Below the pieces are notes generated by a model, which was given only the letters and a program-made list of their open reading frames with translations, searched no databases and was not told the origin of the DNA. From a virus, in IMG/VR virus record IMGVR_UViG_3300026534_000102, positions 1 through 64,000 of that record: a stretch of DNA of 64,000 nucleotides. One strand, 5' to 3'. Positions 2,049 through 40,112 of this stretch are shown here, piece after piece (position 1 is the stretch's first letter; every line of letters starts with the position of its first letter). A program made the translations under genes and the position numbers.

Positions 2049-4001
2049 TTAAACTCCTAATCTCATTTCCTTTTCACAAACAGGGGCTTCCTCAGAGACC
2101 TCATTTTTTAAATTTTCAAATTCAAAAACTATTTCCCCCGACTTAGCAGTTACTTTCACTTTGCTTTTTCTACCTATATCTGTGTTCAATAGCTTCAATG
2201 CCAAGGGGGTAGATACACTCGTTTCAATGTATCTTTTTAATGGCCGAGCTCCGTATTCTTCATCAATGCCTTTTTTATAAATTAAGTTTTTAACTTTACT
2301 ATCAAAACTTAGAGAAACACCACTATATTCTGTAGCATTTGCTTTAAGATATTCATTAAGTTTGTTTAATTCTAATTCAATTATCTTTAAATAGTCTGCT
2401 TTTGTCAGAGTTTTAAAATGAATAACATTATCTAATCGATTTAAAAACTCTGGTTTAAAGGTTTTTCTCAGAGCCCCATCAAGAGCTGCATCTTTTTTTT
2501 CGTCAGTTAACTTAGCTACATCTCCAAAACCTATTGTTTTGCCAATCCTATTTACCTCTTCTACTCCTATGTTAGAAGTCAAGATTATAACAGCATCTCC
2601 AAAGGAAACACTCTTCCCTTTACCATCTGTTAAACGGCCCTCTTCTAAAACTTGTAAGAGGAGCTCATGAACTTTTTTACTTGCCTTTTCTATTTCATCA
2701 AACAATACGATACTAAATGGACGTGCTGCAAGTGCATTCGTAAGAAAACCACCACTTTCATGGCCCACGTATCCCGCCGGCGCCCCAATTAATTTAGAAT
2801 ATTCATGATCGGCCGTATACTCTGAACAATCTACTGTTATAATACCATCCCGTTCTTGAATGAGCTCCTGAGCCAAGACTTTAGAGGCAAGTGTTTTACC
2901 AACACCAGTACGACCTGCAAATAAGAAAGAACCAATTGGTTTTTCAGGGTTTTTTAAGCCAACACTTGCTCTTTGAATTGCACTTACAAGTTCATCTATA
3001 GCCTCATCTTGACCAATTAAAAACTTTTTCATGTTGGTGCCTAACTTTAAAAGAGACTCTTTAGAAACATCTCGAAATCGTTTTGCAGATTCTCTTTTAA
3101 GATAGTCAGTCATAGACGAAGTCTTGTAAGGAGAACGCCCTTTCTTAGTCTTTTTCTTTGAAGAAGGGTCTTCATCTGACAAAACTTGTGCGTTTTCAAA
3201 AGTCAAAAATGGGTTTTCAGACTTACATAAATCATAAAGCTCTTTCATAAGTATTTGCGGCGATACTCTATTCGAAACACCCATACTATCCAAAAGGCGA
3301 AACAAATCTTCAAAGTTTTCCACACAGACAGATACAACAAAAGTAAGGAAACTAACTCGACTATGAAAAAAACGAGATCTTAAAATACTTTCTTCATCTT
3401 TAGCATTGTACTTTTTTATAGTTACATATTGTCCTATACGTTTCCACCACTTTTTAATAAAAGTAGTTTTTAGTTCATCAATATCTTTCAAAGACTCTCT
3501 GGGCAGTTTAGGTCCTTTTTCGTCCTTTGGCGGTTTTGGTGGTTCGGGAGGAGTTTTTTTCTTCTTTTCCTCGTCATATACTTTTTCTATTTCATCATAA
3601 TAATTAGTGCTCCAGTGTTTATTGCTGGTTAGTGGTTTCTCTCCCTTTTTCAATTTCCCATCTGGTCTAATTTTAATGACATAGTTTTGATTAATTACAA
3701 GTACTTTTGGAGACAATAATGGATTAACATCAATAACCGCTTCCATTATTTTCTTTTTAATGGAAACAATACTTAGCCCCGAAGACGCCATTTTATTCAT
3801 ATGATGTAGTAATTGATTTATATTAGCTACACATGTTGCTATAACGAAATCCTCATAAAAACTTTTTGTAATTTGTCCTTTTTCTCGTGCTAAATACGTT
3901 AATTTATCCAGCAAGTCATCTTCCGGAATCCTCAATACCAAAAGATAAAAATCTATTTCCTCAATATATTTTTTGACCACTTCATATTTATCATTGGACA
4001 T
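2049..4001 (-). CDS. ClpB/ClpC-family AAA+ ATPase (D2 module only) with an unrecognised N-terminus
   Basis: IGQDEAI, GSFLFAGRTGVGKT, KLIGAPAGYVGHESGG, VLFDEIEKA, FKPEFLNRLD, YGARPLKR. Confidence 0.9.
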   Translation of the reverse strand: MSNDKYEVVKKYIEEIDFYLLVLRIPEDDLLDKLTYLAREKGQITKSFYEDFVIATCVANINQLLHHMNKMASSGLSIVSIKKKIMEAVIDVNPLLSPKVLVINQNYVIKIRPDGKLKKGEKPLTSNKHWSTNYYDEIEKVYDEEKKKKTPPEPPKPPKDEKGPKLPRESLKDIDELKTTFIKKWWKRIGQYVTIKKYNAKDEESILRSRFFHSRVSFLTFVVSVCVENFEDLFRLLDSMGVSNRVSPQILMKELYDLCKSENPFLTFENAQVLSDEDPSSKKKTKKGRSPYKTSSMTDYLKRESAKRFRDVSKESLLKLGTNMKKFLIGQDEAIDELVSAIQRASVGLKNPEKPIGSFLFAGRTGVGKTLASKVLAQELIQERDGIITVDCSEYTADHEYSKLIGAPAGYVGHESGGFLTNALAARPFSIVLFDEIEKASKKVHELLLQVLEEGRLTDGKGKSVSFGDAVIILTSNIGVEEVNRIGKTIGFGDVAKLTDEKKDAALDGALRKTFKPEFLNRLDNVIHFKTLTKADYLKIIELELNKLNEYLKANATEYSGVSLSFDSKVKNLIYKKGIDEEYGARPLKRYIETSVSTPLALKLLNTDIGRKSKVKVTAKSGEIVFEFENLKNEVSEEAPVCEKEMRLGV

Positions 4002-10806: not shown

Positions 10807-10880
10807 TGGTGGGTCGAGAAGGAATCGAACCTTCATAGACTGGTTAAAAGCCAGCTATTCTACCATTGAATTACCGACCC
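10807..10880 (-). tRNA. tRNA-Lys(TTT)
   Basis: GCTGG-CTTTTAA-CCAGT; CCA encoded. Confidence 0.92.
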
Positions 10881-11164
10881 ATATTGTGTTTTCTATCATG
10901 ACATTTTTTACACCATGTTATCAGATGTTCCATGGGCTCGTTCCGTGGATACTTTTTGGTGTATTTTAAATGATGTACCACCAACATTCTCTTCTTACTG
11001 CCGCATTTTCGACATTTCCAACTATCTCTTTCAAAAACTTTTAGACGCCTCTTTTGCCATTTGGGGTCTTGTAATGCTTTATAGTATTGTTCTTTAGTTA
11101 ATTTGACAAATGCCTTCCTACGAATAGGTTTTTTAGCACGCGTTTTTTTCTTTTTGGGTTTCAT
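10871..11164 (-). CDS. small HNH endonuclease
   Basis: W...R..VFERD.W.CRKC...L.VHH......L.TWCKKCH..H. Confidence 0.85.
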   Translation of the reverse strand: MKPKKKKTRAKKPIRRKAFVKLTKEQYYKALQDPKWQKRRLKVFERDSWKCRKCGSKKRMLVVHHLKYTKKYPRNEPMEHLITWCKKCHDRKHNMGR

Positions 11165-11489: not shown

Positions 11490-11732
11490 TTAAGTTTTAA
11501 GTTTATCAGCTAAATAATTTCTAAAACTGTCAAACTTACTTTTTGCCGATTCTGTTAATTCATTTAAGAAAGAGGTTTTTAATTCCTCTATCTGATTTTT
11601 TATATCATCTATTTCCTTTTTAAGTTCTGTTAATTTAACATGAATAGCTGTAAGACTTTCTTTCTCATTCATCTCTCTGTCCATGTCTGATTCTTTATTT
11701 ACTTCTTTCCTACCATCATCATAAGGACTCAT
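11490..11732 (-). CDS. small coiled-coil hypothetical protein
   Basis: SD AAGGAGG; heptad pattern. Confidence 0.65.
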   Translation of the reverse strand: MSPYDDGRKEVNKESDMDREMNEKESLTAIHVKLTELKKEIDDIKNQIEELKTSFLNELTESAKSKFDSFRNYLADKLKT

Positions 11733-11778
11733 TTATAATCCTCCTTTATTTTTTATCTTTTTGGTGGAGGCGACGGGA

Positions 11779-12060
11779 CAGGTGCCCCATAACTTTCATT
11801 ATGGCCTGGACTATTCCTTCATCTAATTTATAAACATTAGACGGGAAGCGTATTATGGTAGAATTCTGCCACATATACATGTTTTAATTCATCTACCATC
11901 CTAGTGATCCTTTGCTTTAAACTTTAGGACTCTATGAGTCTCTAGACGGCTTACTCTTTTCAGATTCACCGTACGGCGTTGGCACCGGCCGAACCGCTGA
12001 GCGTTCACCGTATGAGCTTCCTTTTCACCTAATTATCACTAATTAGGGCGACCGTTTAAA
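11779..12060 (-). mobile_element. ORF-less group I intron (IA-like, 282 nt) in the tmRNA T-loop
   Basis: P1 CGAU/GUCG with U.G at the splice site; P2 CCTAATTA-GTGA-TAATTAGG; P3 GGAAGC/GCTTCC; P7 GAGACT/AGTC; P9 CCATAAT-GAAA-GTTATGG; terminal G. Confidence 0.9.
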
Positions 12061-12191
12061 ATCGAACCCGTGTCCGCAATGCTTCTTCTAAAGGGTTGAC
12101 GATGATAATTTATAAAACAAGAGGTCAATTAATGAAATACAAGGAAAAACGATGTAAGATTCTGTTGCTAGGTTCTTACTCACCCCAAAGC

Positions 12192-12275
12192 TTAGGCGAC
12201 CGCCAAGGCTTTATTATGTAGCAGCTCTACTCCTTCAAGAGCATCAGCTGCAAAGTCCATCATCGAGTTGTTGTC
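12192..12275 (-). other. tmRNA tag reading frame (A)DNNSMMDFAADALEGVELLHNKALAVA*
   Basis: resume codon inferred after TTTAATC; hydrophobic LAVA C-terminus. Confidence 0.75.
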
Positions 12276-12378
12276 GATTAAATTTTAAGTGTCCAATTTT
12301 AACGATGATCGGTACCGTCATCGCATCGAGTCTTTAGCGTCATTCACCACGTCGAAGCCGTTTCGCCCCCAGTTTATA

Positions 12379-12915
12379 CTAGAAAATCCCTATATTTACT
12401 CGTCTATCTTTCCAACACTCCTGGCAAAAATTATTATTTAATTTTCTCACTGGAGCATCATCGCTTCCATTATTTGTTATAACAAATGGTACCTCAATAT
12501 TATTATCAATAAACCATTCCTCTACAGCATTAATACGTTTTTGACCAAGTGTTTTATTATATGCGGCAGAGCCTCTGAAATCACAGAATGCAGACAAAGC
12601 TATGCCAGTAACATTATGTTTTTTAACATAAGCCCGTATTTCATTTAAAATATTTAATTGGTCCTTTTTAATATCGGCTTTGTCAAAATCAAAGAAAATT
12701 ACAAACAGCCTAAGTTCTTTAGTTGTTGCTACTTTTACAACCACATTTTTGGCGCCACATACCCATATAGGTGCCTCTGTATTATAATAATCAATAGACA
12801 TGAAGCATGGGGAATTTACTCCGTAAAAAGATCCAAAACTTGTGTCATCTCCTGCAAAACTGGTACCAGCAATCATACATATCATACTAAGCGCTACAAT
12901 AAAATATTTAAACAT
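12379..12915 (-). CDS. secreted OmpA-family (peptidoglycan-binding) protein
   Basis: signal peptide; IFFDFDKA, AFCDFRGSAAYNKTLGQKR, DRRV. Confidence 0.85.
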   Translation of the reverse strand: MFKYFIVALSMICMIAGTSFAGDDTSFGSFYGVNSPCFMSIDYYNTEAPIWVCGAKNVVVKVATTKELRLFVIFFDFDKADIKKDQLNILNEIRAYVKKHNVTGIALSAFCDFRGSAAYNKTLGQKRINAVEEWFIDNNIEVPFVITNNGSDDAPVRKLNNNFCQECWKDRRVNIGIF

Positions 12916-13146: not shown

Positions 13147-13174
13147 AAGATAATCACTAAATAGTATTTGTCAA
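13147..13174 (-). promoter_or_regulatory. promoter, repeated motif, upstream of the tRNA/tmRNA block
   Basis: TTGACAAATACTATTTAGTGATTATCTT. Confidence 0.65.
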
Positions 13175-13175
13175 G

Positions 13176-13358
13176 TTATTTCCACCAAATTGTGTAAGCA
13201 AAATTTAAAGCTTGAATAATTCCTCCTAAAATACTAGCCCACAAAATTATTCTGTTTCTAATTTTTTGCTGAGTAATTTCATCGGTCGTATTAGCAATTT
13301 CTTGGCCCACAAGCCCATGAGTCAATTTAATTTTTGCTGTAGTAAGCTTTCCCATCAT
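13176..13358 (-). CDS. small protein with a C-terminal TM helix
   Basis: IILWASILGGIIQALNFAYTIWW. Confidence 0.6.
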   Translation of the reverse strand: MMGKLTTAKIKLTHGLVGQEIANTTDEITQQKIRNRIILWASILGGIIQALNFAYTIWWK

Positions 13359-14344
13359 AATCCCCCAAACACTTTTCTATTCAATAAATCTTTTTCACCA
13401 GTTAATTGTGGATCTTGTTCATAACCCAAAGACTTCAACTTACTTACTGTTTTAGAATAAGCACTTGTCCAACTGTCATCTTCAGACAGAGTAGCCACAA
13501 AAGAATATGTTAGAATCCCGTGCCAATTGTTATCAATAATCACACTCATAGAAGTCTGTGTAGATTTGCAACCACTTAATAGAACATGTCTCTGTGGTCT
13601 TCCATCCTCTCGTCTTCCTATCGAATTAGTAATTAAGTTTTTGGTAGTAAAAATAGCTTGCAAAAATTCCTGCGGCGGGACAATAAACCGCTCCATAGTA
13701 TTAAGGTCTTTACTTATTGTTCCACTATGACAAGAATCACTAATCATTGATAAGAAAACCCCCATAGGTAGTTTCTTAAAAATAGCTGCAATTTCATCAT
13801 CTACAATATAACCACCATCCCAATTAAAATCGTGCGGAATTAAAACTTCATCTAGTTTATCCACTTCATCCCCATTTATATCAGGAACTTGGCTACCATG
13901 TCCTGAAAAATGAAAAACAAGTTCGTCTCCTTTAACAGAAGCGGTAATCATTTTATCCAATTCAGTTAAAATATTGTTTTTAGTTGCTTTTTCATTTGTC
14001 AACAACACAATATTATTTTCATTAAATCCTCTATCTAACAGTACAGATTTTATTTGAAGAGCGTCAGCTACACATCCTTGAAGTCCCACTTTAGGATCAT
14101 TATACACATCTATTCCTACCAATAAAGCGTATTTTGTATCCCGTGTTTTTTCTACAGGAACTTCTGGTGTCGTAGAAGGTGTGTCTTCTAAACTTTCAGA
14201 ACTTTGATCAGGTTTAGAAACAACTATACTTATTTCATCTGGAGCTTCATCTACGTCTGAAGAAGGCTCTTCAGGTGCTTCTTCTATAATAGAGGACTTA
14301 AATAAATTTTGTATCCAATCTATAAAGGCTGCCCACCAAGTCAT
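13355..14344 (-). CDS. caspase-family peptidase C14 (metacaspase)
   Basis: YALLVGID, LQGCVADA, FHFSGHGSQ (catalytic His), ISDSCHSG (catalytic Cys), LSGC...QTS, Q.PQL. Confidence 0.92.
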   Translation of the reverse strand: MTWWAAFIDWIQNLFKSSIIEEAPEEPSSDVDEAPDEISIVVSKPDQSSESLEDTPSTTPEVPVEKTRDTKYALLVGIDVYNDPKVGLQGCVADALQIKSVLLDRGFNENNIVLLTNEKATKNNILTELDKMITASVKGDELVFHFSGHGSQVPDINGDEVDKLDEVLIPHDFNWDGGYIVDDEIAAIFKKLPMGVFLSMISDSCHSGTISKDLNTMERFIVPPQEFLQAIFTTKNLITNSIGRREDGRPQRHVLLSGCKSTQTSMSVIIDNNWHGILTYSFVATLSEDDSWTSAYSKTVSKLKSLGYEQDPQLTGEKDLLNRKVFGGL

Positions 14345-14433
14345 ATTTCTCTCCTTCTTAAATTTATTATGTCGCCAAAAACTATGCCCACAAATACCCA
14401 ATACCCAATATATTTTACATAAAATTAGACCAA

Positions 14434-23099: not shown

Positions 23100-24218
23100 T
23101 TAATGATGCACAATTATTGATTCAACACTTCTATTTTTCTGACGACCAGCATCAGTATCATTAGGAGCCAAAGGAGAGCTTTCTCCCAAAGGATCAATAA
23201 TAATACGATGCGCTCCAATACCCGCCTCTACTAGATATTTCTTTACAGCCTCGGCACGGCGTTTTGATAGTTCTAAATTATACTCAGCTGCGCCAACACT
23301 ATCAGCACGACCTTCTAATTTTAAATCTAATTCTCGATTAACAGACATAACTAGCGCCACATCATTTAAAATTGGATAGAATTCTGGCTTCACTTTATCA
23401 TTATCAAAATCAAATAGTGTAAGCTTAATAACCCAACAACCCTTTTCGTCCACCTTGGCTCCAATAGGAGTGTTAGGACACTGATCAGATGGATTCAACA
23501 CGCCGTCTTTATCGGCATCGCCAGCCGGTTTTAAAAATACAGATTTAATAAAATCACCCACATTAAAATTATCCATAGTTCTAGAAAAACCACAAATACC
23601 CGCTTTAGCCACATTATTAATTTCTCGTTGTCCAAATTTAGATGTACCAACAAAAATAGTATAAACACATAAATCTGGTCCCATTTCTTTCTTTAGTAAC
23701 TTCAATGCAGGAATAGCTTTTTCAATATATTCACCATCACTGATGATCACAAGAGCGGTTGTTCCCGGCAGACTCTTAATATCTTTTCTAAGTCCCAAAA
23801 TAGCTGCCGCTAAATCACTTGTGCCTCCTGTGCCTTTTATAGCATCTAATGCTAAATTAAACTTTTTTCGTGAATGAACCGGTGATAAATAATGTAATTT
23901 AGTAGAATTCCAGTCAAATAAACTCTGTCTTCCAAAAGTTCGTAAGGCACTCCCAAATCCCATGTCCATAGGAAGTGTGTTATTAAGGCCTCCGGCAACC
24001 ATTTTGGCTACCATAAACCGTGTGGTTTTCTTTGTATAAGCCTTTCCCATAGAACTGGAAGCATCTAGAATAACATACATATTGTTAAAATTACGCTCAT
24101 ATAGCTTACTATTTAAATATACACTTTTATAAAGGTTTTTATCAATAGTTTTATGAACAGGCGCGCAACCCACAGCCAATAGCGTCATTAGAAAAAAAAA
24201 TGCTATTTTTTTTACCAT
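23100..24218 (-). CDS. lipoprotein with vWA, TSP3-like and OmpA domains
   Basis: lipobox AVGC; ILDASSSM (MIDAS), IISDG; DADKDGV...DQCPNTP; FDFD...G.ADSVG...YN.ELS.RRA. Confidence 0.9.
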   Translation of the reverse strand: MVKKIAFFFLMTLLAVGCAPVHKTIDKNLYKSVYLNSKLYERNFNNMYVILDASSSMGKAYTKKTTRFMVAKMVAGGLNNTLPMDMGFGSALRTFGRQSLFDWNSTKLHYLSPVHSRKKFNLALDAIKGTGGTSDLAAAILGLRKDIKSLPGTTALVIISDGEYIEKAIPALKLLKKEMGPDLCVYTIFVGTSKFGQREINNVAKAGICGFSRTMDNFNVGDFIKSVFLKPAGDADKDGVLNPSDQCPNTPIGAKVDEKGCWVIKLTLFDFDNDKVKPEFYPILNDVALVMSVNRELDLKLEGRADSVGAAEYNLELSKRRAEAVKKYLVEAGIGAHRIIIDPLGESSPLAPNDTDAGRQKNRSVESIIVHH

Positions 24219-35648: not shown

Positions 35649-38600
35649 TTAAATCTCCTTTTTACACTTATTGCAAATCAATTTTGTTTTGTATTTCTTA
35701 TCTGGAACAAAAATCATTTCATCATTTCCACAATCACATTCACTTTTCAACCAACAAGGCCCAATTAAAGCATCAGTTTCCATAGGAATTTTGTGGAAGT
35801 AATGTCCAAACCCATCAATTAATGAATTTGCTACAAGTTTACCCACGTCATGTCTTTCTTCATGTTTACACTCTACAACTACTTCATCATGAACTGTTAA
35901 TATCAATTTAGCATCATAAGAGCTTTTTTCTAGTCTGTCAACTAAGTAAATCATAGATTGTTTAATAGTATCTGCATTTGAATTGTGGACTAACACACCA
36001 TTAGCTGTAAAATAATGAATATTATTGCACATTAAATCATAAGTCTTTTCTTTTCCTTTATAACTTATGTGTTTTTTCTTACAAAAATCAAAATTCAAAA
36101 ACCGAGAAAGTAGTTGTTTATTCGGTCCATTAGGAAGTTTATAATAAAATTTTCTCCAACTCACATAAGAACTTTTACCTAACTTAAATCTTCTTAAATG
36201 TGCTTTCTCTGGAAAGGACAATGATGCATAACGATCTTTGTTTTCCCTGAATGTTTTTTCTATAAGTTTTGGTATAAACTCAGGCACAACACCCCCATCA
36301 CCAAACATTGGAATGGAACTTTCTTCGTCAAGAATTTTATCTTTAATTTTTGTAGAAAAACCCACATATTTTTTAAATCTACTATTAAATCTTTTAGGAA
36401 TCTGTATTTTATAAACTCTATCATATATTTTCAAGTTAGAATTTATACCTAACGAAAATAGAAGTTGATGTACTGACTTTGCAAGCTGTTCAGAAGTAGT
36501 AGTAAAACTTGGACCTGATTCTTTAGTCATCTCACCACCTGTTGAAAACAGCCCATTTAACAAGGCCCCTTTATTTTCTATAGTTTCAGTATGAAAATAA
36601 TCAGGAATAGCTTTTTTATGATGAGACACATAATCAAGCCCTATATGTTTTAGAAAGCCACGTATTACTACAGAATTAACTTGTGACCAGGGTAACGGGT
36701 CCCTATTGGCATCATTTTTATGGCGCATCCTTATTTTTGATTTATACCCGAACTGATCGTACACCGCATTATTAAATTTCTCAAATAGCTCTTTTTGATT
36801 TTGTGGACAAACAAAAGCAAAGTGGTTGTGTTTTGTGTAACTACCGTTCCCTATCAGACACCCTATAATAAAAGCCAAATCAGCATTCATTTTAGAAGGT
36901 AAATTATAATTTACATAAGTTTCTCGGCGGTGGCCTTTTTCATACTTAAATCCTGACAAATTAGTAGTTCGGCCTGAAACAATATTTAAAGGAATTATTA
37001 ACAAATCGTCTTCTTCTAAGTCAGCTACCTTTACATCTTCTATATTATAATTGTCACCATATTGCTTGCATATGGGAATTTTATGATCCGATGTAATATC
37101 CAGTGTAGCTCCATTAGATAAAGTAAGTGTGAATACCTCCTTTTCTCCAGAATATACTCCAATAGCATTATCACTGCCTATACCTGTTTCTAAAGAACAC
37201 TGTACATTCTTAAGAGAGCCTATCTTACCCTGCCCTTTAATTATAGTATCGAATGACAAGCAACCTTGAATAGGGGCATTTTTAGCCCTGCGTTCAACAC
37301 TACTTTTTAATCTCCCGAAATCTGGATTGCCATACTCTGGTAAAGTGTAATATCTTTTTCTTCCGCTTATAGATCTGCTAAACCTATTCATGACTGCGTC
37401 TTTAGCAGCTTTTTCTAAATATTTTTTAACTCCTCTGTATCTTTTAAAGTATGTTGTTATCATCTGATCAGCTTTTGCTTCAGATATTTTTAGCCGCCGC
37501 GCGAGACCATATTTAGAAAGTCCATAACAATTATGAACCACAAAACCATTTGCAAGAAAATATGGATGTTCTTCTACAGATATATCATATACTTTCTTTA
37601 ATCCTTTACTTTTTATAGATCTGATTTCCAAAGGAACTATGCCTTTTTCGTAAAGCATCTTAAAAAGAGAATCATATTTAGAAAGCTCTTTTAAATAAAT
37701 ATCTCCGACAGAATCAGAAAATCTGCTTTTATAAAACCTGTCCTTTAATTGTTTACTTATTTCATAATTATGTACTGTGTGGTCTATTCTATCTTTATAT
37801 TTGCCAATAAAATATGAGGAAACATTATAATGCACTTCACTCTTACACTTACAATTTTTTAAATCTGTAACAAACCCAATATATTTAATAAACAATTCAG
37901 AACTATTTTGAGATATAACAGATAAAACATAATATGTATTATTATATCCTTCACGAGATTCCTCTATGATAGAAGACACAATACCTAAGTTTAAAAGCAT
38001 TAATTGTACGTCTTTAACAAGGTTATAAGAAGCACTACTATAGGTTATCTTATAACCAGCCCCATTTAACTTTACAGAACCATCCCCTTCGAATAACCAC
38101 TTTAAAAACTCTGTTTGATAACCTAAAGGTGCCCTTTTAATACAGCCCGGAACACCAACATCAAAAGTTTTATTTTTATTATTTATATCACAAACATTAA
38201 CAAGCCATTCTGCAAACAGTACTGAATTAATAGTATATCTTGTATACGTTCCCTCAGTCTTAGAAATGCGATCCTTAAATAAACGAAACAATAATTTATC
38301 TATTTTTGAAATGAATTCTTTATTTTCATTACTAAACCCAAAGGAAACAGTACTATAATGTTCGCGCCCTTTGGCTTTAAGTATACTTCCCTCAGCCACA
38401 AACAACCCTAAAAAAGCAGCTACATCTTTATTCATTTCATCTGGCAAAGGCATAGGTTTATAATTGGTTCCTTCAACTACTTTAAAATCACCAAATTTTG
38501 GTAACATTTCTGGAAACAAAAAAGAACCTTTTTTAATACAAATCAAGTCTTGTTTTATATCAATTTTATTTAATGGAACATCTACATACTCTCCATTAGC

Positions 38601-40112
38601 ATTTATAACTTTAACTATGTGATCAGAAGTTAACTCAATAGAATAACCGTATTTAGTCTGTATTTCGAAAACTTCCTTTTCTCCCATATATTGTTTATCT
38701 ATTATTTGATTGCTACCAAAATCATGTGCCACTACATCGTTCAAGTTGCTATGTATAATTTTTTTTATTCCACCGTTAGTAATAAGTTGAGTATCTGCAG
38801 TGGTACAAAGACCGAAGTTGATCGCCTTGGCAGCATTTCTCATATCCTTTGTAACTTTATCCATTGAAACATTAAAAACTTCAGATGCAGTTCGAGTATG
38901 TAGATCAATTCCAGTAGCGTAACATTCTATAAACACTGGGTCAGCAGACAAATTACCTAAAATACGTAATTCGGCACCAGACATGTCTGCTGTAATTAAA
39001 GAATTACCTTCTTCTGCTATAAAACATGATCTATATAATTGTTTCTTGGGTATGTTTTGTAAATTAGGACGGGCGCTGCTCATCCTTCCAGTAGAAACCA
39101 TTTGTTTGAAATCAGTATGTAGCCGGTTTGTAACTGAATGAATCTGATTTAACAATGCCTCGCCATAAGTTGAAATTAATTTATTTGCTTTTCTATATTT
39201 TAATAAGGTATCTATAACTGGAATCCCTTGAAATTTAGTTAGTGTGGCTTCATCTGTGCTATCAATGTTTGACAAACCATGATGACTCAATGCTTCTTTT
39301 AATTGGATTGGGCTATCAATATTAACCGAAGGCACACCAAATAAAAACCCTTGATCGGAACCCTTTGAAAGCATCTTAGATATATCAAAATGTAGTTTTT
39401 CCCGTTGCTCAGCAATGTTCTCCATTATAAGGTGCCATTTATCCACATCTATTTTAATTCCATTTAATTCCATTTCACACATAGGCTTAGTAAACTCAAA
39501 TTCAAGTCTGGCAGCATCTGTAAGTCCTTCTTTAACAATTTGACCCCATTGTAGTTCTTTTATGGTTGATAAAACCACCACGTCATTAGCAGCATATTCT
39601 AATTGAAAAGGTTTAAATTTTTGATAGTAGTCCTTAAACGTGTGGGCTGGTTCTTTTGGCATTGTTATGCCTAAATATTTTTTAACTAACTTTGCCAAGG
39701 ATGCACCAGCAAAAACTTTTCCCAAGCCCAGTAATTGTTCAATAAGCATAAGATCCACGATATTATTTATATAAAAACCATGATTAGCTTTTATCAATTT
39801 CATATCAAACACAGCATTTTGCAATAATTTTTGAATATGTGGATTTACTAATAAAGGCTCAAATAATGACAAGTCAACATTACTGAAATCTGTGTCTGAC
39901 CTTACATCAAACACATACACCTTCGTTGGGGTTCCAATTTGAAGTAATGACACCTTAGCATAAAATGGATCCAAATCAGTAGCCTCAGTATCAATAGCAA
40001 TACGATCAAACTTGCTTATCTCACTAAGAGCAGTCCGTGCTTTTTCTTCCGAAACAATGTAATCATACTCCGGTTTCGGCAGATAAATCTCTTTTGTTTC
40101 TACTAAAGACAT
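35649..40112 (-). CDS. polA: family A DNA polymerase (3'-5' exonuclease + polymerase) with two inteins
   Basis: AIDTEAT; TGRMSS.RPNLQNIP; ADMSGAELR; R.AAKAINFGL; NAPIQG|SNAD; TVHDE. Confidence 0.95.
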   Translation of the reverse strand: MSLVETKEIYLPKPEYDYIVSEEKARTALSEISKFDRIAIDTEATDLDPFYAKVSLLQIGTPTKVYVFDVRSDTDFSNVDLSLFEPLLVNPHIQKLLQNAVFDMKLIKANHGFYINNIVDLMLIEQLLGLGKVFAGASLAKLVKKYLGITMPKEPAHTFKDYYQKFKPFQLEYAANDVVVLSTIKELQWGQIVKEGLTDAARLEFEFTKPMCEMELNGIKIDVDKWHLIMENIAEQREKLHFDISKMLSKGSDQGFLFGVPSVNIDSPIQLKEALSHHGLSNIDSTDEATLTKFQGIPVIDTLLKYRKANKLISTYGEALLNQIHSVTNRLHTDFKQMVSTGRMSSARPNLQNIPKKQLYRSCFIAEEGNSLITADMSGAELRILGNLSADPVFIECYATGIDLHTRTASEVFNVSMDKVTKDMRNAAKAINFGLCTTADTQLITNGGIKKIIHSNLNDVVAHDFGSNQIIDKQYMGEKEVFEIQTKYGYSIELTSDHIVKVINANGEYVDVPLNKIDIKQDLICIKKGSFLFPEMLPKFGDFKVVEGTNYKPMPLPDEMNKDVAAFLGLFVAEGSILKAKGREHYSTVSFGFSNENKEFISKIDKLLFRLFKDRISKTEGTYTRYTINSVLFAEWLVNVCDINNKNKTFDVGVPGCIKRAPLGYQTEFLKWLFEGDGSVKLNGAGYKITYSSASYNLVKDVQLMLLNLGIVSSIIEESREGYNNTYYVLSVISQNSSELFIKYIGFVTDLKNCKCKSEVHYNVSSYFIGKYKDRIDHTVHNYEISKQLKDRFYKSRFSDSVGDIYLKELSKYDSLFKMLYEKGIVPLEIRSIKSKGLKKVYDISVEEHPYFLANGFVVHNCYGLSKYGLARRLKISEAKADQMITTYFKRYRGVKKYLEKAAKDAVMNRFSRSISGRKRYYTLPEYGNPDFGRLKSSVERRAKNAPIQGCLSFDTIIKGQGKIGSLKNVQCSLETGIGSDNAIGVYSGEKEVFTLTLSNGATLDITSDHKIPICKQYGDNYNIEDVKVADLEEDDLLIIPLNIVSGRTTNLSGFKYEKGHRRETYVNYNLPSKMNADLAFIIGCLIGNGSYTKHNHFAFVCPQNQKELFEKFNNAVYDQFGYKSKIRMRHKNDANRDPLPWSQVNSVVIRGFLKHIGLDYVSHHKKAIPDYFHTETIENKGALLNGLFSTGGEMTKESGPSFTTTSEQLAKSVHQLLFSLGINSNLKIYDRVYKIQIPKRFNSRFKKYVGFSTKIKDKILDEESSIPMFGDGGVVPEFIPKLIEKTFRENKDRYASLSFPEKAHLRRFKLGKSSYVSWRKFYYKLPNGPNKQLLSRFLNFDFCKKKHISYKGKEKTYDLMCNNIHYFTANGVLVHNSNADTIKQSMIYLVDRLEKSSYDAKLILTVHDEVVVECKHEERHDVGKLVANSLIDGFGHYFHKIPMETDALIGPCWLKSECDCGNDEMIFVPDKKYKTKLICNKCKKEI
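35982..37262 (-). mobile_element. intein 2 in the polymerase (427 aa, degenerate LAGLIDADG)
   Basis: PIQG|CLSFDT...LVHN|SNAD. Confidence 0.93.
37530..38807 (-). mobile_element. intein 1 in the polymerase (426 aa, LAGLIDADG)
   Basis: INFGL|CTTADT...VVHN|CYG; LGLFVAEG and LKWLFEGDG. Confidence 0.93.

Follow-up and report, generated by a model that had tools for sequence, protein, structure and literature searches.

We analyzed a 64-kb stretch of viral DNA (the window), which forms the first 64 kb of a 115,311-bp IMG/VR virus record (IMGVR_UViG_3300026534_000102; estimated 44% complete). Our analysis confirmed that the phage behind this record carries a transfer-messenger RNA (tmRNA) gene that is split in its T-loop by a group I intron lacking an open reading frame (ORF). 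We consider it highly probable that the gene encodes a working tmRNA of the intron form and that its intron is selfish, a passenger at a site that is universally conserved. The gene spans 12370..11762 on the minus strand and is split between T-loop nucleotides 6 and 7. Exon 1 (12061..12370, minus strand; 310 nucleotides [nt]) starts at 12370 with the 5' end of the gene, GGGGGCGAAACGGCTTCGACG. It contains the 5' acceptor strand GGGGGCG, a D-like region, a pseudoknot-rich body, the tag frame, helix 2, and the 5' strand of the T-stem with T-loop nucleotides 1 to 6 (ACGGG TTCGAT), and it runs on to its 3' end GCGGACACGGGTTCGAT at 12061. Exon 2 (11762..11778, minus strand; 17 nt), read directly as TCCCGTCGCCTCCACCA, supplies T-loop nucleotide 7, the 3' strands of the T-stem and acceptor stem, and ACCA. 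The intervening IA-type intron (11779..12060, minus strand; 282 nt) was identified with the Rfam model RF00028, nhmmer, and an alignment.

In silico excision of 12060..11779 joined ACGGGTTCGAT, ending at 12061, to TCCCGTCGCCTCCACCA (11778..11762). The spliced T-arm reads ACGGG/TTCGATT/CCCGT, with a 5-bp T-stem and a 7-nt T-loop, and the spliced acceptor stem has 7 bp (GGGGGCG/CGCCTCC), G3:U70, the discriminator A, and CCA. All five T-stem pairs between the two exons form, and they covary across the intron family. The predicted spliced junction reads GGGTTCGAT joined to TCCCGTCG (in a further form, GGGTTCGAT joined to TCCCGTCGCC), and the intron-less T-arm sequence is GGGTTCGATTCCCG. The choice of splice sites is unique: no other pair gives a 7-nt T-loop together with a terminal G and a −1 U that pairs with G. 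When given the spliced sequence, ARAGORN called one 327-nt tmRNA with a tag frame; it called no tmRNA in the unspliced isolated 661-nt region or in the raw 64-kb window, where it called 19 transfer RNAs (tRNAs). The original prediction, made from the letters of the window, had placed the excision at 11779-12060 and expected it to restore the T-arm and an alanyl acceptor with G3:U70, and it was exact to the base.

Across the window, Rfam at gathering thresholds reported tRNAs only. At an E-value threshold, it reported two adjacent matches on the same strand: RF00023 (tmRNA; 43.5 bits, E 7.5e-16) at 12362..12058 of the unspliced gene and RF00028 (Intron_gpI; 35.9 bits, E 2.4e-7) at 12068..11787, covering the full model (1-253). 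Since both scores are below gathering level, the gene is absent from a default scan. The covariance-model check suggested with the original prediction therefore came out in part: tmRNA and group I matches were found by E-value, but both lay under the Rfam gathering cutoffs. Its expectation that standard annotation would pass the gene over was borne out by both ARAGORN and Rfam at gathering thresholds. Rfam does not include a published tmRNA_intron covariance model (at least 150 bits, at least 500 bp; PMC11915505), and this is part of the reason that annotation based on Rfam misses such genes.

The intron contains the core helices P3 to P8, with the R and S elements forming P7, as in other group I introns. 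All helices described here are on the minus strand. P1 (12049..12064) pairs CGAUU (12064-12060) with GGUCG (12053-12049) at 5 of 5 positions, with a U12061.G12052 wobble at the splice site. All 53 aligned sequences have this U.G, and the +1 pair shows covariation (C-G, U-G, or U-A). P2 (12029..12046) is a 7-bp hairpin with a GUGA (GNRA) loop, in which all seven pairs form and all seven show compensatory changes in the family. P3 (12021-12016 with 11849-11844; 6 of 6 pairs) encloses P4, P5, P6, the 5' strand of P7, P7.1, and P7.2 (11844..12021). Within it, every pair forms in P4 (12011-12006/11978-11973; 6 of 6), P5 (within 11844..12021; 2 of 2), P6 (11972-11968/11950-11946; 5 of 5), P7.1 (11930-11927/11910-11907; 4 of 4), and P7.2 (11899-11894/11860-11855; 6 of 6), and these five helices, like P3, show compensatory changes across the family. 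P7.1 and P7.2 lie between the 5' strand of P7 and the 3' strand of P3, the arrangement that marks subgroup IA.

The 5' strand of P7, GAGACU with a bulged A (11937..11942), lies inside the conserved R element GUCUAGAGACUC, in an AGAGACT block that is invariant in the 53-sequence alignment. Its pairing with AGUCC (11812-11808) is a direct reading of the sequence and does not draw on covariation. The P8 hairpin, J8/7, and the 3' strand of P7 occupy 11808..11841, with P8 pairing UCUAAU (11841-11836) with AUUAGA (11827-11822) in the minimum free energy (MFE) fold and the Rfam consensus alignment. The 3' strand of P7 is inside the conserved S element GAUGAAGGAAUAGUCC (group I S element, GAAGGAAUAGUCC), and its ATAGTCC block is invariant. 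The 3' end of the intron (11779..11807) consists of P9.0, which pairs AGG (11807-11805) with CCU (11782-11780); P9 (11804-11798/11793-11787; 7 of 7 pairs, GAAA loop); and the omega-G at 11779. P9.0 covaries in the family (AGG/CCU, AGC/GCU, ACG/CGU, and GGA/UCC). The single-sequence MFE fold alone yields P2, P3, P4, P5, P6, P7.2, P8, and P9. The U.G pair in P1, the GNRA-capped P2 and P9, P3, P7, the IA extension, and the terminal G had all been named in the original prediction and were all found where it had put them; its description of the intron as ORF-less also agrees with our scan, in which the longest ORF overlapping the intron has 44 amino acids.

We gathered related bacterial introns with a generic pattern, consisting of the T-loop end and two universal group I core blocks, which gave at least 120 matches. 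Among the matches listed, 103 loci (100 bacterial) were called by ARAGORN as complete tmRNAs once they had been spliced automatically. We then used 110 introns (108 bacterial and two from cyanophage records) for an nhmmer profile from which the window sequence was left out. In the 64-kb window, this profile had one match, at 12057..11779 (132 bits, E 4e-40). The match spans profile positions 4-279 of 279 and terminates on the inferred terminal G at 11779. It is this family-specific profile and not Rfam that settles the identity of the intron.

An alignment of 53 sequences, including that of the phage, at identities up to about 82% (alignment A1) gave 60 pairs with RNAalifold, 46 of them with compensatory changes. 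The pairs span the exon-exon T-stem, P1, P2, P3, P4, P5, P5a, P6, P7.1, P7.2, P9.0, and P9. The phage intron is canonical at 58 of the 60, with both misses in the poorly aligned P5a. The other 52 rows have 94 columns with conservation of at least 90%; at every one of these the phage intron has the consensus base, the best result among the 53 sequences. It shares with those 52 rows the insertion register, the −1 U, and the terminal G. With every core helix and every conserved base kept, the intron looks intact.

Intron-form tmRNAs are well established in bacteria. The 2025 tmRNA database (PMC11915505) distinguishes three gene forms (standard, permuted, and intron) and lists 883 unique intron-form sequences from 21 phyla, all interrupted in the T-loop and most at internucleotide position 7. 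These introns follow a −1 U/omega-G rule, average ∼293 nt, and contain an endonuclease gene in only 4% of cases. The founding Clostridium botulinum tmRNA intron, of 287 nt, is cited as having earlier been found to self-splice (PMC2729099). The phage gene fits exactly the known intron form at T-loop position 7. Our own narrow pattern recovered intron-form tmRNA in at least 100 species-level bacterial genomes, and together with the catalogue this makes the earlier description of such introns as rare and reported in a few bacteria outdated.

The tmRNA gene is phage-borne and does not belong to a host flank, and the contig is that of a genuine large phage. The gene lies inside a same-strand array of 19 tRNAs, in the same orientation as all of its neighbors. 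One flank encodes a ClpB-D2-like AAA+ protein, a Rad52-like protein, and DNA methyltransferases, and the other a ribonucleotide reductase, a DNA polymerase, a clamp loader, a primase, and DnaB. The nearest DnaB of a cultured phage has 31% identity. The 5' end of the tmRNA is 9 nt past the stop of an OmpA-like ORF (12915..12379), and its CCA is 30 nt ahead of an ATG at 11732. In a consensus scan, the best promoter-like site (TTGACA-16-TATCTT; 13147..13174, minus strand) lay ahead of tRNA-Asn, tRNA-Gln, the OmpA-like ORF, and the tmRNA. With the only good promoter-like site ahead of the preceding tRNAs, the tmRNA is probably released from a longer transcript by excision.

The predicted tag frame (12192..12275, minus strand; ARAGORN) opens with the resume codon GAC at 12275, extends over 27 codons, and closes with a TAA ending at 12192. 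It occupies positions 96-179 of the spliced tmRNA and encodes DNNSMMDFAADALEGVELLHNKALAVA followed by the stop, with the hydrophobic end ALAVA. The resume region aligns with the RF00023 consensus, and ARAGORN flagged the tag as having no match to a known tag. Among the bacterial intron-form tmRNAs, L200 (from an Omnitrophota metagenome-assembled genome) and L215 have predicted tags of 25 to 28 residues, so a long tag is not unique to the phage.

The surroundings of the gene include several further features. A free-standing HNH endonuclease ORF of 97 amino acids (11164..10871, minus strand; PF01844, 25.2 bits; phrog_119, E 9e-16) is located in the tRNA array ∼600 bp downstream of the tmRNA and overlaps the 5' end of tRNA-Lys by ∼10 nt. 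The AAA+ gene (2049-4001, minus strand; 650 amino acids), 8 kb from the tmRNA with its long tag, encodes a single ClpA/B-type D2 AAA+ module (AAA_2 and ClpB_D2-small; phrog "ATP-dependent protease") besides an unassigned N-terminal part of 300 amino acids. A caspase-like Peptidase_C14 protein and two OmpA-domain proteins, one of which also has a VWA domain, are encoded at 13355-14401, 12379-12915, and 23100-24218 (all minus strand), scattered among the tRNA genes of the array, an odd combination for such a region of a phage genome. The DNA polymerase ORF (35649-40112, minus strand; 1,487 amino acids) matches polymerases in three separate stretches, with recombinase- and helicase-like segments between them, and may be interrupted by at least one intein or insertion. 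The 115-kb record has no second group I intron.

Relatives of the gene were scarce among viral sequences. Among 50,697 deposited phage genomes, distant-mode blastn with the gene in full gave no match, and an exact 22-mer from the end of exon 1 had 0 matches in metagenome contigs. A 1,181-amino-acid protein and the caspase-like protein, both encoded near the tmRNA, had no relatives in IMG/VR, and DnaB had relatives there at 51 loci (43 to 55% identity). The family-specific pattern found only three other IMG/VR records. Two are cyanophage records (L005/L007) with a permuted tmRNA and a T-loop intron. The third (G001; IMG/VR 3300033821_000019), of 78 kb, has a standard tmRNA (99.6 bits) with a 292-nt intron at the same site. 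The neighbors of the G001 tmRNA are phage-type and include GIY-YIG and HNH homing endonucleases; an endonuclease VII/HNH-like ORF (L316 9007-9564, minus strand) ends 53 nt from the tmRNA 3' end, and it is not homologous to the HNH ORF of the window.

Three phages with related DnaB (G005, G020, and G022) carry a different, short group I core (RF00028, 30 to 47 bits; L313 245-422 and L314/L315 1501-1643). These introns are unrelated to the tmRNA intron and are sited elsewhere, not in a tmRNA, and the short core probably sits in a protein gene. Three loci from related samples in IMG/VR (L003 2150-2413, L004 3064-3327, and L006 1066-1329) match the generic pattern GGTTCGAT ... AGAGACT ... ATAGTCC; neither Rfam nor ARAGORN made a tmRNA, tRNA, or group I call on them.

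We examined the source of the intron and the identity of the host using three signals, and we put forward neither a separate transfer of the intron nor a host. Among the matches listed, the phage intron falls in a clade of 37 rows (99% support in the Shimodaira-Hasegawa-like approximate likelihood ratio test [SH-aLRT]), 31 of them gammaproteobacterial (Methylophaga, Pseudomonadales, and Chromatiales), and its P3-P7 core has up to 82% identity to gammaproteobacterial introns. We rejected a gammaproteobacterial host as a firm conclusion, as Gammaproteobacteria dominate the bacterial matches listed: the tree contains 103 introns, of which 76 are theirs (Steroidobacteraceae, Methylophaga, Chromatiales, and others). 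The published summary of intron-form tmRNAs stresses Bacillota, and either our pattern or the order of the scan may have produced the gammaproteobacterial excess. The intron is 67 to 69% identical to those of the nearest bacteria, versus 58 to 61% for the exons. We make no claim that the intron was acquired apart from the tmRNA, since this gap is within the range of bacterial pairs; at like intron identity, these have a median exon identity of 69% and a minimum of 53%. Lastly, the 5' motif GGGGGCGAAACGGNTTCGACG is too general to serve as a host signal. It occurs in at least 120 bacterial genomes (Desulfobacterota, Acidobacteriota, Myxococcota, and others), and all examined matches are ordinary intron-less tmRNAs that resemble the phage gene at the tRNA-like ends only.

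These features suggest how the gene would work. The tmRNA gene would be transcribed together with the surrounding tRNA array and the intron would then fold, with P1 using the T-loop bases CGAU and the U12061.G12052 wobble marking the 5' splice site. Free guanosine would attack after U12061, and the freed 3' OH would attack after the omega-G at 11779. Exon ligation would give a 327-nt tmRNA whose restored T-arm and G3:U70 acceptor would allow end processing and alanylation. The mature tmRNA would be expected to work with host SmpB, and stalled nascent chains would receive a 27-residue tag that ends in ALAVA. Splicing would be the only route to mature tmRNA, with T-loop bases tied up in P1 and the 3' acceptor strand placed on the far side of the intron. 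The intron itself is most likely a selfish occupant of the universally conserved T-arm sequence, as in bacteria, and is probably not regulatory.

It is important to note that several observations weigh against a working tmRNA with a selfish intron. The Rfam matches reached neither the gathering score of 47 for RF00023 (43.5 bits) nor that of 50 for RF00028 (35.9 bits). The former score is low because the intron displaces the 3' acceptor strand; the latter is to be expected because the Rfam seed contains no bacterial introns (bioRxiv 10.1101/2020.01.27.920355), and it is no argument against the fold. P1 is short (5 bp), and we found no convincing P10 in the intron. There is no SmpB on the 115-kb record, which is about 44% complete. 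Compared globally, the tmRNA body is no more than 58 to 61% identical to any of the bacterial tmRNAs that we collected, where shuffled sequences give ∼49%, and the tag, which is unusually long and begins with GAC instead of GCN, is without a relative for comparison. No tmRNA was found in the 24 DnaB-related records searched, including a complete 268-kb genome, which makes the tmRNA an accessory gene of this phage lineage.

Some of these observations would also suit a decaying relic, carried along in the tRNA array, whose intron has lost splicing or whose tmRNA has lost function. The very divergent body, the atypical tag, the Rfam scores under cutoff, and the DnaB relatives without the gene all point that way, and there is a precedent in the host-tmRNA-inhibiting tmRNA of phage DS6A, which lacks a coding sequence (CDS; cited in PMC11915505). 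Decay is nevertheless unlikely given that the 94 highly conserved intron columns are intact, that 58 of 60 pairs are kept, that the acceptor stem, G3:U70, T-arm, and CCA are perfect once spliced, and that the open tag frame finishes with the hydrophobic ALAVA and an in-frame stop. The original prediction had suggested that splicing could act as a timing or condition gate; on this reading, the phage would need its tmRNA at a certain stage or condition only, and the rate or condition dependence of self-splicing would set when active tmRNA appears. Its premise that function depends on self-splicing is a reasonable one, as the anatomy implies that maturation must go through splicing, and the apparently long tRNA/ORF transcript without a promoter of its own for the tmRNA makes posttranscriptional control conceivable. 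The gate itself found no support and is quite unlikely: related phages do without any tmRNA, and the intron is ORF-less, has no specific sensing feature, and is the most consensus-like member of a widespread selfish family, known from at least 100 bacterial species and the 883 catalogue sequences and read there as site invasion.

A different role for the intron would be immunity through collaborative homing, in which a free-standing endonuclease, for example the HNH protein (11164..10871), cuts the intact T-arm DNA of the host or of rival phages while the intron shields the phage allele. The HNH ORF ∼600 bp downstream in the same array, and the endonuclease VII/HNH-like ORF 53 nt from the intron-form tmRNA of G001, are what such a system might look like. 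We regard it as very unlikely: free-standing HNH genes are common in phage tRNA regions, this one is generic, small, and unrelated to the G001 endonuclease, and an ORF and two tRNA genes separate it from the tmRNA. An elaboration of the same idea, private trans-translation, would have the 27-residue tag of the self-spliced tmRNA direct rescued proteins toward a factor of the phage, for example the ClpB-D2-like AAA+ protein (4001..2049), while the intron protects the allele from a T-arm-cutting endonuclease; this draws on gene co-occurrence only and is highly improbable. Finally, tmRNA genes are often prophage integration sites, and the locus might be host DNA, either a prophage-flanking ssrA or a misassembly, as four IMG/VR contigs that share its 5' motif bear ordinary-looking standard tmRNAs. 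This is extremely improbable, as the gene sits 11.7 kb into the contig and is flanked on either side by phage genes. Moreover, its orientation is that of all its neighbors and of the 19-tRNA array, its body matches no bacterial tmRNA among the more than 200 collected, and no integrase was seen nearby among the ORFs scanned. Thus, a working tmRNA with a selfish intron is the reading that we retain.

The gene form, the insertion site, and the ribozyme class have all been described already, and no new mechanism is opened here; the phage setting is the unusual part. Phage carriage of an intron-form tmRNA was unmentioned in the papers searched; the catalogue did process RefSeq viruses (PMC11915505), and phage cases may already be among its entries. 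The family of tmRNA T-loop introns is abundant in bacteria, and large phage genomes carry it as well. It is plausible that phages serve as a vehicle for the intron between distantly related bacteria, and its occurrence in 21 phyla would agree with this. Since default ARAGORN and Rfam at gathering thresholds miss the gene, phage tmRNA counts are underestimated wherever the intron form occurs.

Compared with the bacterial intron-form tmRNAs, the phage gene has the same insertion between T-loop nucleotides 6 and 7, the same −1 U.G in P1, and the same omega-G. Its intron, at 282 nt, belongs to their size class (mean, 293 nt), is ORF-less like those of 96% of the catalogue, and has the same helices, including P7.1 and P7.2, with GNRA loops on P2 and P9. 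It differs in being carried in a phage tRNA array and in its tmRNA body and 27-residue tag, whereas bacterial tags are of the ANDDNYALAA type. Group I introns in anticodon loops or coding sequences belong to the same ribozyme class and share the insertion in the loop of a conserved hairpin, where pairing between the exons (here the T-stem) brings the splice sites together. In the window, in contrast, the site is the tmRNA T-loop and there is no endonuclease gene inside the intron. Other phage tmRNAs, such as those of mycobacteriophages, including the CDS-less one of DS6A, are likewise ssrA-like genes of the phage itself, lie beside tRNAs, and presumably use host SmpB; unlike genes such as that of DS6A, the gene in the window is a full-length one that has a tag frame and is split by an intron. 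The permuted tmRNAs of the two cyanophage records are also phage tmRNAs with a related intron at the same T-loop site. While those genes are two-piece (circularly permuted) and their intron rows, which are much more divergent, match 85% of the conserved columns, the gene in the window is a standard one-piece tmRNA whose intron matches 100%.

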